Of a stretch of DNA of 64,000 nucleotides, positions 25,037 through 43,703 are shown piece after piece. The stretch's first letter is position 1; the number at the start of each line of letters is the position of its first letter. The stretch comes from an archaeon (GTDB lineage Archaea; Asgardarchaeota; Thorarchaeia; Thorarchaeales; Thorarchaeaceae): NCBI GenBank assembly GCA_024276825.1, contig JAJRWI010000053.1, positions 12,404 to 76,403 on the forward strand, in the 5' to 3' direction. The position numbers and the translations under genes are program-made. The notes beneath the pieces are model-generated. The model was not told the DNA's origin and made no database searches. It saw nothing but the letters and a program-made list of their open reading frames with translations.

Positions 25037-27976
25037 CTATATATCGCCAGCTTCTTCCTGAAGTGATAGTAGAATCTTATCAATCTCAGTTGTTGCACGC
25101 TTGATTGTCTTAAGAAAGTCCTCTCGGGTGCGTTCGAATGCCACACGACTAATCTTCTGCTTTTTCTTCCTGATAAGCAGTTGGCGAAGACCAGCTTTGG
25201 CACCTTCGATGCGCTCCTCCTGAAGCTCAAGATGGGCTATCATATCGCGGTACCGTGATCCATAGCGCATCAATTCGTCCTTAAGAGAGGGTAGCTTTGA
25301 TTCAATCTCTTGAAGTTGCCTCTTGATGTCTTTTTCACGAATCATATACTCACGTTTTTTGATCTTGCCCCGTCGGCGAGAGGTGTCAAGTTTCTCGAGG
25401 TCCATGTTCAATGCTACCTTCTTAGAGTAGAGAGTTGCAAACTCTTTCAACAGACTTGGAGGGGCAGACACTCTCTTTGCAGGAGTTGAAGCATCACTAA
25501 CTGGAGTTGTTATTGTAGCTTCTTCAATCTCGACCTTTCGAATTGAAACGTAAGCAGCGGCTATCAGACCGATAATCACTGCAAACGCCATGGGTCGTGC
25601 AACAATTCCAGATGCGAGTGAGTATGTCAGTAATATTTCAGCAGGGTTCATCGAAGTAGTGTTATAGACAATGTATTGGAAAGTGTTGTCAAACACACCA
25701 TAGAGTAAACGATAGTTGTCAGATATCTGATTCACACTGACAGAGATTGGTACGACGATGTCAATGGTGTGTTTCTGAACGAGAAGGTTGTCCATAGTAC
25801 TTTGTGGAAACTTAATTGTATTGCCAGTCTGATAATGGTCTATCTGTAAGTCGAATTCAATAAAGAATGTGTATTTGTAATGAGGGTATAGTCCATCATC
25901 ACCAAAACGGTCCGACTTTAGATTTATGATGAGATTTGCGGTTTCATTGAAGAGTCGTTCCGATGATGGCATTGAACGTGCGAGTATTCCAACCTGATCG
26001 TAAACAACAATGTTAGTTGTGTACGCGGGGATGTCATACTTCATTGTGAGTTCTTTTGCTGGGCCTATATTGTTCAGTGAAACTTCTTCATAATAGTGAA
26101 TCCAGCCCCAAGGGTCAATAGTAATTCTTGTGAGCTTGTTTGCAACAATCAAGGGCGTGAAAGACTCCATTGTTGTGGAGAACTCTTCCACTGTCATTGG
26201 TGCAACATTTTCTTTCTGTACTTCTGGAAGGGATCCTGTCATCCTGTCGCCGCTTCTGAATTCCATTCCAAAACTGAATGAGTGGATAGTGTATGGAAGA
26301 ACTGGATACTTCAGAAAACGGATCTCGTACCCCTCGTTTTCAAAATCAATCAGTTGATGTAATGAGTGCATGTAGAAATGGGTAGTGAATGAGTATCTTG
26401 CTTGAAATCCTACAGGCTCTGCGAAATAAACCCGCCAATGCATGAAGTCATTGTAGTCTGGAAGTCTTTCAATTTGCAGTTCAACATCATCGTCATCAAT
26501 CGCCGTAAGCGATAAGAAATACGATGACCATTTCATTGGCAGAAATACATCAATTGCATTAATTGGAACAGACCCATTATTACGGATTGTGAACATATCA
26601 CGGACATCAGTAGAGTGATAGGTCTGCGTATGTATCTCGCGCTTAATCGTCAGCTTCATCCCATTTAATGGTTGGAACGGGTAATCTATGGTCACATTCA
26701 CAAAAGTGACAGAGGTGCGATTGGAGGGGTCTGTTGCATTGAACCAAATTGTATGAGGGCCGGTTTCATAACTTGAAAGGTCTAAGCTCTCTACCCACAG
26801 ATCACTCTTGAAATCATAAAATATTTCTGTCCAGTCCTCATCATCGAACTTGTACCATACCCTTCTCACTAATGTGTTATCAGTAGCATTGAGTTTCAAT
26901 GTGGTGACAATGCCAATGGTTGAGTCTTGTTCAGGACTTTCAACAATTAGTGTTGGGGGTGCATTGGGGACAAGTTGCATCATAAGGGGAGTCGACCAGG
27001 GAGTGTGATGAACAGGCAGTTCATTGAATGCATCATTTTGGCCGAATAGTAGAATCATTGGATACTGGAGAGTTGTCGAGTTTGTGAGAGCAATGTCTTG
27101 AAGGTCTGTGCTGTTCAGTCTGATAATATATTCAATTTGGGTTGTAAGACCGTCATCAGTTGCATTTGCCTCCACCACGCGAGTCTGATTGGTATCGTCA
27201 ATGTAAGTGAATGTACCTGTTCCAAAGCCTTCGCGGTATTCAATTCTGCTTGCATCTGCAGGGTTGTCATGATTGCCGTTAATTCGGAGTAGCGTAATCT
27301 CATATTCAAGATCATAGCCATAGAAGGGATGGTCCTTGGAGTTGTAAGCATATTCAGCGGGGATTATAAAATGACGGACTTCTCCTACTCGCATTCCAAT
27401 TATTGCCTCTTTGAACTTCTCGAGAAGCTTCTCGTCATTGAGAGGGGTGGTTGATGTGATGTCAGGGATGTTTCCCTCTTCAATAACTGTTCCATTTCTG
27501 AGAGAGAGAACATAGTGCACTGTGACTGCCTCTTCTCCCGTGACCCTTTCGATTGTGGTGTGTGGAGTGCCAGGAGCAAATCCATAGATGATATCACTCT
27601 GGTTTAAACCCGAGTCAGTAAAAACACCTGTCGAGTTCTTCCAGCTGAGAGCAATCCATCCTGACGTGGGTGCTGACAGGCCCACGTACAACATTGTTGA
27701 ATTATGTTCCATATACACGGTGATACCAGTGATTGGGTCTGTATAATTATAGGCATATTCCCAAGGGTCGATTATACCATCAGCAAAGCCATAATGCTTG
27801 TCTACGTATGGAATGGATAGATTCAAGGATGACTCAGACAAAGACTGTATAGGCTTTGCAGCATCAGGTGTGGTTTGTGCATTAAACGTTGTTTCGGGGG
27901 TTGTCACCATCACACCACTAACCAAGAGTAGTGTCAGTAATGTGAGGGTTGTCATTCGTCTCTGTAACAGACTCAA
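25037..27976 (-). CDS. Multidomain membrane protein: signal peptide, DOMON-like domain with inserted FKBP-type PPIase, Ig-like domain, ribophorin I-like domain, TM helix, cytoplasmic coiled coil
   Basis: LYVGLSAPTSGWIAL..SDII (DOMON-like); VTVHY...AIIGMRVGEVRHFIIPAEYAY..HPFYGYDLEYEITL (FKBP); PLIVANKLTRITIDPWGWIHYYEEVSL..IPAYTTNIVVYDQVG (ribophorin I-like); many NxS/T sequons. Confidence 0.75.
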   Translation of the reverse strand: MSLLQRRMTTLTLLTLLLVSGVMVTTPETTFNAQTTPDAAKPIQSLSESSLNLSIPYVDKHYGFADGIIDPWEYAYNYTDPITGITVYMEHNSTMLYVGLSAPTSGWIALSWKNSTGVFTDSGLNQSDIIYGFAPGTPHTTIERVTGEEAVTVHYVLSLRNGTVIEEGNIPDITSTTPLNDEKLLEKFKEAIIGMRVGEVRHFIIPAEYAYNSKDHPFYGYDLEYEITLLRINGNHDNPADASRIEYREGFGTGTFTYIDDTNQTRVVEANATDDGLTTQIEYIIRLNSTDLQDIALTNSTTLQYPMILLFGQNDAFNELPVHHTPWSTPLMMQLVPNAPPTLIVESPEQDSTIGIVTTLKLNATDNTLVRRVWYKFDDEDWTEIFYDFKSDLWVESLDLSSYETGPHTIWFNATDPSNRTSVTFVNVTIDYPFQPLNGMKLTIKREIHTQTYHSTDVRDMFTIRNNGSVPINAIDVFLPMKWSSYFLSLTAIDDDDVELQIERLPDYNDFMHWRVYFAEPVGFQARYSFTTHFYMHSLHQLIDFENEGYEIRFLKYPVLPYTIHSFSFGMEFRSGDRMTGSLPEVQKENVAPMTVEEFSTTMESFTPLIVANKLTRITIDPWGWIHYYEEVSLNNIGPAKELTMKYDIPAYTTNIVVYDQVGILARSMPSSERLFNETANLIINLKSDRFGDDGLYPHYKYTFFIEFDLQIDHYQTGNTIKFPQSTMDNLLVQKHTIDIVVPISVSVNQISDNYRLLYGVFDNTFQYIVYNTTSMNPAEILLTYSLASGIVARPMAFAVIIGLIAAAYVSIRKVEIEEATITTPVSDASTPAKRVSAPPSLLKEFATLYSKKVALNMDLEKLDTSRRRGKIKKREYMIREKDIKRQLQEIESKLPSLKDELMRYGSRYRDMIAHLELQEERIEGAKAGLRQLLIRKKKQKISRVAFERTREDFLKTIKRATTEIDKILLSLQEEAGDI

Positions 27977-28169
27977 TATGAATCACCAGTGCTCTACGGA
28001 TTTCGCGTCAACTATGGAACTGTGTGCTCCGCGAACGTTCCGCTTCAACATCTAGACTGTTAAAATAGTTTCTGTCGTACAACGCACGCACCAACATGTA
28101 GAAAACGAGATTTGTCCATCGAAAAGTGTAAAATGGAGTGAAAATGCATACAGGTCAGGTGAGTATACA

Positions 28170-29189
28170 TTGATCCAGATCATTCTTGCCCTCATAATCT
28201 CTTTCATTGCGGTGTTTTCTATATTGCCCGCAGCAATCAGAATGCTTAAGGCCAGAGGAATTTGTGGGGTCGATGTCCATAAGCCCAACAAGCCCTCAAT
28301 TCCAAAGGGAGGAGGGTTTGTCCTACTGTTCGCAATAGTCACAACTCTTCTGGTAATAATTGGAGCGACCACATTCATTGAACATGGACAGGTGAATATT
28401 GGGCTGCTTGCATCTCTGGTTTCAATCTTGATGGCAGGAATGATTGGGCTGCTTGATGACAATCTTGACTTTAGTAATCGAATAAAGATCATAATGCCCA
28501 TGCTCGCATCAATTCCAATGATGGCACTGAATGTGGGAACCACAACAATGTCAATACCATTAATTGGGACTTTTGACTTGGGAATCATTTATCCCTTGAT
28601 AGTCATCCCATTGATGATGACATTCATCATTGACTCTACAAACATGTACGGGGGAATGAACGGACTAGAAGCGGGTTTGGTGTGCATAAACTCATCTGCG
28701 ATCATCATCTATCTGGTGGCTAAGCCCCTTCTGAATATAGACACAATTGCTCAAAATGAGATGGATGCTGCGATAGTGGCTGCTGCCCTACTTGGTGCTT
28801 CACTTGCATTTTTGTGGTTCAACAAGTATCCAGCCAAGGTCTTGCCAGGTGATGTAGGAAGACTACCGATGGGGGCCACCATAGCAGCATCGCTCATTCT
28901 TGGAAACATGGACCGCATGGCAATTATCATGTACATACCCTTCTTGATTAACTTCATCATGTATTTGCTATACAGAATTTATGTCAAGAAGAAAGGCATC
29001 GAGTATGTCAAATTCGCCACTCCGAGGGATGATGGTACATTGGAAGTTGTCGGACCATTCACCATGTATTGGCTATTCCCATATCTCTCAAAGAAGATTA
29101 CCGAGAAAAAGAACGTGATTATTCTGATACTGATTCAGGCGATTATTGCCTATACTGCGGTTGCATATCTTCTACTGTTCATGAAGTGA
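28170..29189 (+). CDS. UDP-GlcNAc:dolichyl-phosphate GlcNAc-1-P transferase (AglH/Alg7/DPAGT1, MraY-GT4 family)
   Basis: GVDVHK, GLLDD, NMYGGMNGLE, FNKYPAKVLPGDVG; multi-pass hydrophobic. Confidence 0.88.
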   Translation: MIQIILALIISFIAVFSILPAAIRMLKARGICGVDVHKPNKPSIPKGGGFVLLFAIVTTLLVIIGATTFIEHGQVNIGLLASLVSILMAGMIGLLDDNLDFSNRIKIIMPMLASIPMMALNVGTTTMSIPLIGTFDLGIIYPLIVIPLMMTFIIDSTNMYGGMNGLEAGLVCINSSAIIIYLVAKPLLNIDTIAQNEMDAAIVAAALLGASLAFLWFNKYPAKVLPGDVGRLPMGATIAASLILGNMDRMAIIMYIPFLINFIMYLLYRIYVKKKGIEYVKFATPRDDGTLEVVGPFTMYWLFPYLSKKITEKKNVIILILIQAIIAYTAVAYLLLFMK

Positions 29190-42362: not shown

Positions 42363-43703
42363 TTAGAATATCAATTCACCCCGGGCTTCTGCCTCTTTGA
42401 TCAATCGCATCTTTTGTTCTCTTCGCTCAAACAGTTTTTTCCAAATGACATAGGCAATGAATACAAGCACTGCCAGAAAGCCAAATCCCAGAATTGTCAG
42501 CCAGCCATGTGGGAAGTGTATCAGAAAGTCTGGGAGTGGGCCACTGATGAAGTATGGCCAGTTGCAGACAACTCCAAAGGCGTATAGGAAGCCAATCACA
42601 GTCAGTTCTTTGAGATATCCAACTGCATGTTCATCCTTCTCAAAGAACATTATCATGGGTCCTAGCCAGAAAAGATACCAAGGCATGACCCATTGGAAAG
42701 CAAATAACATGGATGGCAATAGATAGACATACAATGGCTTCAAGAGGTTTATCTTTTCACGAAAGTTGGCAGACGTGAATTCGGCCTTCTTTGGAAAATA
42801 GAGCGGGACAGTATATAGCATAAATGCTACATATATTGCCAGAGGTATCAATGCGGGAGCCCACATATATGATGATGTGGTGGGCGATACAGGGTCTGGA
42901 GTGCCAAAGAATAATCCGGGATACAGGGGATTCACTGGGTAGGGGGAGTATTCAGTTGAGTTTACGAAATGCCCCATCAGCGAGTTAAAGCTTGCACCCA
43001 AGAATGCAAATGGGATAACTGTCAGTAGTGTGGAAACAAAGAACCAGAAAATGGAAATAGGTGCCTCAATGAATAGGAGAGGTAGGGCAACTGCAGAGTA
43101 TATCTTTGTTTGTATTGACAGTCCAAGTACAAACATGGACTTACCCATCTGGCCCTCCTTTCTCAATACAAGTGCCATCAGGAACAGGCAGTCAACAATG
43201 GGTTCTAACTTGCCACCGCCAGCGGACATGATCAACCCATATACATAGTATCCAGCAAAGAACATTCTTGCCCAGTTGGTAGTGTAAATCTTATCACGGA
43301 GTAATATGGCTATCAATGCTAGGTTTAAGTTGAACACAAGAACGAGTATGAAATTGACCCATAGATGTTGCAGCCCATGCACGCCTGGAAACAGCCCTGT
43401 AGCTATTGCAAAGAATATCAGACCAAAGACGGGATACTCATAGGTTATGTTTCCCAGATATTCTGGAAGTGTGTGATAACCATCATTCCATTCACCACCC
43501 ATTGCCTGTGCGAGGTCGTGATCAGTCCAATTATAGACATTGAACCCATAGATCCAGAATGCCTCTCCGTACATCTCATTTCGGTTTCTATCACGCTCAA
43601 TTACAAAAAAGTCGGCTATAGGGATTGCAAGCATAGATATTACTAGACTCAGCACGAAGTACTTTCGAAACTCGTATATCTTGAATGATATCGCACTGAG
43701 CAT
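42363..43703 (-). CDS. Polytopic GT-C-fold glycosyltransferase (GT87/PIG-M-like)
   Basis: About 11 TM segments, YEYP in the first external loop, GLSIQTKIY, PWYLFW. Confidence 0.6.
   Translation of the reverse strand: MLSAISFKIYEFRKYFVLSLVISMLAIPIADFFVIERDRNRNEMYGEAFWIYGFNVYNWTDHDLAQAMGGEWNDGYHTLPEYLGNITYEYPVFGLIFFAIATGLFPGVHGLQHLWVNFILVLVFNLNLALIAILLRDKIYTTNWARMFFAGYYVYGLIMSAGGGKLEPIVDCLFLMALVLRKEGQMGKSMFVLGLSIQTKIYSAVALPLLFIEAPISIFWFFVSTLLTVIPFAFLGASFNSLMGHFVNSTEYSPYPVNPLYPGLFFGTPDPVSPTTSSYMWAPALIPLAIYVAFMLYTVPLYFPKKAEFTSANFREKINLLKPLYVYLLPSMLFAFQWVMPWYLFWLGPMIMFFEKDEHAVGYLKELTVIGFLYAFGVVCNWPYFISGPLPDFLIHFPHGWLTILGFGFLAVLVFIAYVIWKKLFERREQKMRLIKEAEARGELIF

Follow-up and report, generated by a model that had tools for sequence, protein, structure and literature searches.

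The only ribophorin-like gene found in this Thorarchaeaceae genome (98% complete) encodes a 979-amino-acid (aa) protein that is, with high confidence, the OST1 subunit of the Thorarchaeales oligosaccharyltransferase (OST), carrying an N-terminal head in which an FKBP-type domain is nested in a DOMON sandwich and followed by an immunoglobulin (Ig)-like domain. The gene lies at positions 25037-27976, minus strand, of the window, i.e., the whole 64,000-nucleotide stretch of contig JAJRWI010000053.1 that was analyzed. We lean, without great conviction, toward a head that acts as an OST-tethered binder or foldase for nascent secreted chains. OST1, a helper subunit of the glycosylation machinery that Asgard archaea and eukaryotes have in common, is already well known from Asgard archaea; a literature search, which left most subscription journals outside its coverage, returned no paper describing the FKBP-in-DOMON head or a DOMON on STT3, in agreement with an earlier note on this DNA, made from the sequence alone, that knew of no such architecture.

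OST1 core and domain architecture

The gene and its parts are as follows.

25037-27976, minus strand: whole gene for thorarchaeal OST1/ribophorin I with an N-terminal DOMON(FKBP)-Ig head, 979 aa, single copy
27887-27976, minus strand: signal-peptide-like hydrophobic helix, aa 1 to about 30, then a low-confidence linker to aa 51
27563-27823, minus strand: DOMON N-half, aa 52-138, with Leu124 at the heme-Met position
27278-27550, minus strand: FKBP-type domain in a DOMON loop, aa 143-233, without an insert-in-flap (IF) domain
26969-27259, minus strand: DOMON C-half, aa 240-336, with His324 at the second heme-ligand position
26681-26965, minus strand: Ig-like spacer, aa 338-432, from a weak Big_7 match, surface-protein repeats, and the model
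25613-26665, minus strand: two ribophorin I luminal-type beta-sandwiches, aa 438-788, from Foldseek matches to RPN1/Ost1 and membership of the Asgard OST1 clade
25538-25612, minus strand: single transmembrane helix, aa 789-813
25052-25468, minus strand: cytoplasmic four-helix bundle, aa 837-975, a homologue of the ribosome-binding domain found in MK-D1 OST1

Pfam Ribophorin_I gave no match above the cut-off on this protein, and its OST1 identity therefore rests on the fold and on a match to Protein Data Bank entry 8WHN; a precomputed PF04597 annotation is present on some full-length homologues. When an AlphaFold2 model of the full protein, built with 95 homologues (mean pLDDT, 85.8), was compared by Foldseek with known structures, the top 8 matches were human and yeast RPN1/Ost1 (E values of 1e-26 to 1e-16), and all other matches were far weaker. 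In addition, aa 837-972 match 8WHN (E 1.3e-9), the four-helix cytoplasmic domain of OST1 from 'Ca. Prometheoarchaeum syntrophicum' MK-D1, which pulls down ribosomes (PMC11417166). This bundle is the most conserved portion of the protein. By homology and fold, the whole is a type I membrane protein. At the N terminus, hydropathy peaks at aa 8-26 and a helix is modeled at aa 3-21, with pLDDT below 50 at aa 16-51.

The earlier note had proposed a ribophorin I/OST1-like region at about aa 438-790, one transmembrane helix, and a cytoplasmic coiled coil; the first two were borne out, the helix at about aa 789-813, and the third is actually the OST1 four-helix bundle. Of the Pfam families that it had named, FKBP_C was recovered and Ribophorin_I was not. 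MK-D1 OST1 (607 aa, 8WHN; PMC11417166) likewise has a signal peptide, a ribophorin luminal region, one transmembrane helix, a homologous bundle, and membership of a single-copy family, whereas the thorarchaeal protein has about 400 extra N-terminal residues, comprising the DOMON with its FKBP and then the Ig domain. Human RPN1 (8B6L_O and 6S7O_E) and yeast Ost1 (6EZN_A) share the fold of the C-terminal 540 residues at 12-14% identity but lack a fused foldase or DOMON, malectin and FKBP11 being separate proteins.

An FKBP domain nested in a DOMON sandwich

Modeled alone, the head (aa 50-338) reached a pLDDT of 93.5. Over residues 4-288 of this model, both halves align with DOMON folds, including the gamma subunit of ethylbenzene dehydrogenase (2IVF_C, Z 16.4, rmsd 2.7, 168 aligned residues) and others at Z 15.9 and, for DBH, Z 14.1; an Atlas DOMON gave a TM-score of 0.53, and CBM9 (1I82) matched at Z 12.5, a likeness at the level of the fold only. 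The match to the FKBP-type protein SlyD (3CGM, Z 12.2, rmsd 1.9) is confined to the middle of the model, between the DOMON halves. Since DOMON structures align to both flanks and SlyD and other FKBPs to the middle, the nesting that the earlier note had described, with an FKBP-type domain at about aa 140-234, is confirmed. Pfam FKBP_C was found at aa 146-230 (E 1.9e-11) and in 49/49 homologues, and Pfam DOMON in 29 of these 49; in databases, the fused proteins are labeled 'FKBP-type isomerase' or 'hypothetical.'

The DOMON resembles heme-binding members of its fold, namely, the ethylbenzene dehydrogenase gamma subunit, the CDH cytochrome, and archaeal DOMONs accompanied by 4Fe-4S and NrfD genes, with which it shares the fold and a C-terminal His; it differs from them in Leu, Ile, or Phe in place of the heme-ligand Met, in the 100-residue FKBP insertion, and in having no redox genes nearby. 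The replacement of Met by Leu, already noticed in the earlier reading, is general: the site is Leu or Ile in 95/95 homologues of this genome's family and Phe in a sister family that shares the fusion, whereas uninterrupted DOMON relatives have Met at 108 of about 130 sites and His in 30 of the 37 where that position aligned. Heme binding of the usual type is thus unlikely, although the His324 position is kept in 86/95 homologues, and a cytochrome b-like DOMON was rejected because the Met ligand is lost. Conservation is higher in the head (0.70-0.77) than in the ribophorin luminal domains (0.56-0.60), which indicates that the head is under real constraint; within the ectodomain, conservation peaks in the DOMON N-half. 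In a separate observation, three loci from other Asgard families (L095:2439-5973, L097:1676-5785, and L101:3601-7278) encode a DOMON protein with Met and His in tandem with a 4Fe-4S gene, with NrfD confirmed in two of the three; these are likely heme-DOMON respiratory modules.

The Ig-like domain, placed by the earlier note at about aa 338-432, is supported by a weak Pfam Big_7 match at aa 341-410 (E 0.017) and by matches to Ig repeats in the genome's surface proteins. The protein carries 17 sequons, all N-terminal to the transmembrane helix, against a shuffled expectation of 7.1 +/- 2.4. It is thus sequon-rich relative to chance, as had been claimed, but its density of 1.7 per 100 aa is ordinary for the genome's large surface proteins (1.7-2.9). 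One sequon within the FKBP domain is kept in 87/95 homologues, which fits an FKBP located outside the cell. About 30 Ig-like repeats akin to this spacer, along with 73 sequons, occur in a 3994-aa frame elsewhere in the genome (contig C18, 13367-25348), whose product is a plausible client of the thorarchaeal OST.

Distribution and origin of the fusion

Sixty loci were fetched, 27 from Thorarchaeales (16 genera, two families) and 33 from 18 other Asgard families. The order DOMON N-half, FKBP, DOMON C-half, Ig, ribophorin, transmembrane helix, and bundle was present in all 27 Thorarchaeales loci, and none of the 33 others had DOMON, FKBP, or Ig domains added to OST1. Intact frames measure about 985-1030 aa in Thorarchaeales, against about 570-755 aa for the other listed families. 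Across the phylum, the OST1 cytoplasmic domain matched in 246/301 genomes, usually once. No shorter, unfused thorarchaeal OST1 was evident, the short matches being mostly on short contigs or marked partial. Full-length homologues of the fused protein are mostly labeled Thorarchaeota, and a few bear other Asgard labels. A chimeric join, which the earlier note had raised as a possible source of error, is excluded by 130 full-length homologues from independent assemblies with the same domain order. In a quick tree, the fused proteins formed one clade among the single-copy Asgard OST1s (Shimodaira-Hasegawa-like approximate likelihood ratio support of 100), and on these sequence comparisons we read the fusion as a single gain in the ancestor of Thorarchaeales.

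A few genomes also encode stand-alone proteins with a signal peptide, the DOMON(FKBP)-Ig head, and a transmembrane helix but without ribophorin (for example, L093:5525-7318, L094:5130-6887, P0124, P0126, and P0127). In quick trees with modest support, these nest inside the fused family and share its derived FKBP; they look like later spin-offs of the fused gene, and a stand-alone ancestor of the fusion is not favored. Their existence does lend something to the idea that the head is a passenger unrelated to glycosylation, either a surface module that OST1 merely anchors or a domain with a redox or metal role through His324 and His258, as do the retention of His324 and the 4Fe-4S and NrfD genes that adjoin plain DOMON relatives. 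We regard this idea as very unlikely, given that every examined Thorarchaeales locus carries the fusion, that the stand-alone heads appear derived, and that the Met ligand is absent throughout the family.

Two further observations concern OST1 length and assembly. OST1 proteins of 680-755 aa, about 100-150 aa beyond the usual form, occur in several other Asgard families (L036, L040, L044-L046, L050-L052, L055, L059, and L060). One genome of the same genus (G236, one contig, 86% complete) has no OST1 match, and its STT3 core and DOMON tail match far apart, possibly an assembly problem.

Partner subunits and a DOMON-like tail on STT3

The genome encodes one STT3, on a different contig (C36) from OST1 and with intact WWDYG and DxxK motifs, together with an OST3/6-like gene 3.3 kb from STT3 and an OST5-like open reading frame (ORF). 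The OST3/6-like product (L103, C36:41162-41674) is a membrane protein of about 140 aa, apparently without a thioredoxin domain. STT3 ends in a domain of 170-180 aa for which hhalign indicates homology to the DOMON of OST1 (probability, 89.5%; E 2e-6).

L002:3622-4167, contig C36: DOMON/CBM9-like tail of STT3/AglB, aa 750-931

Pfam gave no match on this tail, and its Atlas neighbors were EB_dh, CBM9, and DOMON clusters. It is present in 73/77 Thorarchaeales genomes; outside the order, only weak matches in shorter, non-STT3 frames were seen, and divergent copies on long STT3s could escape such a search. Since the STT3 tail and the OST1 DOMON are both thorarchaeal, both core OST subunits gained DOMON-like sandwiches in the same lineage. 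Because kin share such features, this amounts to one joint event at most rather than to statistical co-evolution. When the ectodomain of OST1 (aa 50-790) was submitted to complex prediction with the C-terminal domain of STT3, the score was 0.00, which speaks neither for nor against contact. Asgard STT3 frames range from about 680 to 1360 aa depending on family, implying several different C-terminal extensions.

The paired sandwiches bear on the question of which part of the head does the work. The DOMON might be a malectin-like lectin that holds back or checks chains just after their glycosylation, the FKBP being secondary. In favor of this, CBM9 belongs to the DOMON fold, the Met ligand of heme has been lost, the DOMON N-half is so well conserved, both OST1 and STT3 carry such sandwiches, and malectin works with mammalian ribophorin I (PMC7226087); against this, the nearest relatives in structure and sequence are heme-type DOMONs, and we consider a DOMON-led head improbable. 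A lectin role of this kind would be compatible with either a foldase or an adaptor function of the FKBP.

The FKBP pocket and the putative role of the head

The pocket of the FKBP domain can be followed residue by residue, with Y155 equivalent to Y26, Y211 to Y82, I165/E166 to F36/D37, and Y225 to F99. Among the 95 homologues of this genome's family, the Y26 and Y82 equivalents are invariant, and at the positions of Y26, Y82, I56, W59, and F99, the residues Y, Y, L, Y, and Y reach 97-100% conservation. Compared with the canonical pocket (Y26, F36, D37, V55, I56, W59, Y82, and F99), the residues other than the two invariant tyrosines have been replaced conservatively. The sister family retains FDTS, V-I, F, Y, F, and the archaeal bulge insertion, with all canonical pocket residues but H87, so that the FKBP of the head appears to derive from an archaeal short-type FKBP. 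With archaeal short-type FKBPs and SlyD it shares the fold and the Y26/Y82 equivalents, as well as FDTS in the sister family; it differs from them in being extracellular, nested in a DOMON, and altered at D37, F36, and F99 in this genome's family. There is also no IF chaperone domain after the Y82 equivalent, only 7 residues separating Y211 from the YG.DL strand. Mutagenesis of SlyD gave the greatest weight to the equivalents of Y82 and F99, and an Ala mutant of the D37 equivalent keeps 78% of activity (PMC5034536). Since D37 is largely dispensable there, the thorarchaeal domain, which retains aromatics at the Y82 and F99 positions, may or may not be an active isomerase. The only other FKBP in the genome (contig C7, 34033-34812) looks cytoplasmic and is of the archaeal long type with an IF domain.

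We propose that, in the ancestor of Thorarchaeales, a short-type archaeal FKBP without an IF domain would have entered a loop of a DOMON that once bound heme and that would have lost its Met ligand, and that the Ig domain would space this head from the ribophorin core. The C-terminal 540 residues would, by homology, join STT3 and bind ribosomes, and OST1 would assemble with STT3, OST3/6, and OST5 beside ribosome-bound SecYE. The head would then position the FKBP pocket on the outside of the translocon and OST, where, as secreted and surface glycoproteins emerge, it would bind their proline-containing or hydrophobic segments and probably isomerize these at a modest rate; tethering would replace the missing chaperone domain, and the DOMON would be a chassis and possibly a glycan binder. 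In support of this foldase reading, we count the evidence for OST1 identity (sole ribophorin, RPN1/Ost1 fold, 8WHN match, OST1 clade, and constant domain order), the conservation of the head, its fixed pocket residues, the canonical site of the sister family, the FKBP sequon, the encoded partner subunits, and the presence of an FKBP at the eukaryotic OST-A translocon (PMC12804085).

Several observations weigh against a foldase. In this genome's family, F36 is replaced by I or L, D37 by Q (77/95) or E (17/95), and F99 by Tyr, and the F46/F48 wall is so remodeled that it cannot be aligned. FKBPs that lack a chaperone domain catalyze folding poorly (PMC11013033), and in the structure of human FKBP11, a partner protein buries the catalytic site (PMC12804085). 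Furthermore, the placement of the domains relative to each other is uncertain in the full model (pTM, 0.45), and the stand-alone heads indicate that the head can work apart from OST1.

Alternatively, the FKBP may be a noncatalytic adaptor or structural element whose remodeled pocket binds a fixed partner and folds nothing. Candidate partners are the STT3 DOMON-like tail, a TRAP-like protein, or a surface-layer assembly factor, comparable to FKBP11 with CCDC134. The invariant, family-specific substitutions (D37 to Q/E, F99 to Y, and W59 to Y) point to a new, fixed ligand, STT3 gained its related tail in the same order, and the case has been made that human FKBP11 at the OST-A translocon is itself an adaptor and not an isomerase (PMC12804085). 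This possibility deserves attention, but we hold it to be rather unlikely, as the sister family, which has the same fusion, keeps an archaeal FKBP site of the canonical kind and the aromatic Y82 and F99 positions remain compatible with catalysis.

Relation to FKBP11 and the endoplasmic reticulum

Human FKBP11 places an FKBP on the luminal side of the ribosome-SEC61-OST-A translocon (PMC12804085; PDB 9N9J and 9YGY) and is anchored by one transmembrane helix with a basic cytosolic ribosome-binding element, an arrangement comparable to that of thorarchaeal OST1. FKBP11 is, however, a separate protein with no sign of orthology, whereas the thorarchaeal FKBP is covalently part of OST1. The earlier note had envisaged an endoplasmic reticulum (ER)-like unit that folds while it glycosylates. 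Of this picture, the OST1 orthologue, its extracellular FKBP-in-DOMON head, and the encoded STT3, OST3/6-like, and OST5-like proteins are supported, the prolyl isomerase or chaperone activity is putative, and any ER likeness is most likely convergence, since the fusion is confined to one order. The fusion is probably not ancestral to the ER and thus has limited bearing on the origin of that compartment.

Protein folding outside archaeal cells is poorly known, and here an FKBP domain is exported within OST1 across a whole Asgard order; the MK-D1 translocon study found Asgard homologues of ER chaperones without signal peptides and concluded that they are cytoplasmic (PMC11417166). If the FKBP is active, folding help has been attached to the OST or translocon at least twice in evolution. 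More speculatively, and in our judgment doubtful, OST1 and STT3 could form a covalent quality-control OST independent of eukaryotes, in which OST1 would bear an active isomerase on a lectin-like DOMON and STT3 a second DOMON-like domain, so that nascent surface glycoproteins would receive their glycan, be held by it, and fold in one place. A single complex would then correspond to FKBP11 and malectin combined and, within the reach of our literature searches, would provide the first case of a folding catalyst with a signal peptide on an archaeal OST. Because the head is small and soluble, and because a canonical-site version is available from the sister family, the question can be tested directly in vitro.

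The aglH neighbor and the rest of the window

Upstream of OST1, in divergent orientation, lies a glycosyltransferase gene, and conserved sites occupy the intergenic region.

27982-27987, minus strand: conserved Shine-Dalgarno site GGTGAT, 5' of the OST1 TTG start
28060-28075, minus strand: BRE/TATA-like element facing OST1, conserved in 22 aligned intergenic regions, putative promoter
28120-28133, plus strand: BRE/TATA-like element facing aglH, conserved in 22 aligned intergenic regions, putative promoter
28170-29189, plus strand: AglH/Alg7 (DPAGT1-like) GlcNAc-1-P transferase, 339 aa, the only one found in the genome

The two ORFs and their divergent arrangement agree with the earlier description, the start codons being 193 bp apart (about 190 bp had been given). 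OST1 begins with TTG, which is credible because of the Shine-Dalgarno site and because TTG is kept across 22 aligned loci. The two facing elements suggest that OST1 and aglH would use separate promoters; a scan for bacterial sigma-70 promoters gave no useful signal. The aglH product belongs to the GT4 enzymes (Glycos_transf_4, E 3e-29) and is closer to DPAGT1 (E 5e-21) than to MraY (E 2e-12); as the gene is also single copy, the AglH/Alg7 label is sound.

Linkage of aglH to a folding module, as first suggested, holds only in part. The gene is head-to-head with OST1 in 25/25 Thorarchaeales loci having DNA on that side, but it belongs to an 11-gene housekeeping block in which topoisomerase VI, KH, Rio1, eIF1A, Nmd3, and an HD gene show about the same degree of conservation, it has its own putative promoter, and it is also near unfused OST1 in 8/33 loci from 5 other Asgard families, so that the linkage probably predates the fusion. 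It supports a glycosylation role for OST1 and is silent on the FKBP. Among the other neighbors named at the outset, SRP54 and a GlmU-like gene are present but 23-32 kb away, FtsY was recognized by eye, and the ORF that we took to be the GT-C enzyme (42363-43703, minus strand, 446 aa) had no Pfam match at E 1e-5. The presence of SRP54, FtsY, and GlmU in the same window was rejected as evidence, as these genes lie 20-32 kb off among ribosomal and other housekeeping genes. Within the aglH block, one genus (L026:4711-6403) is without both topoisomerase VI genes and retains aglH and OST1.

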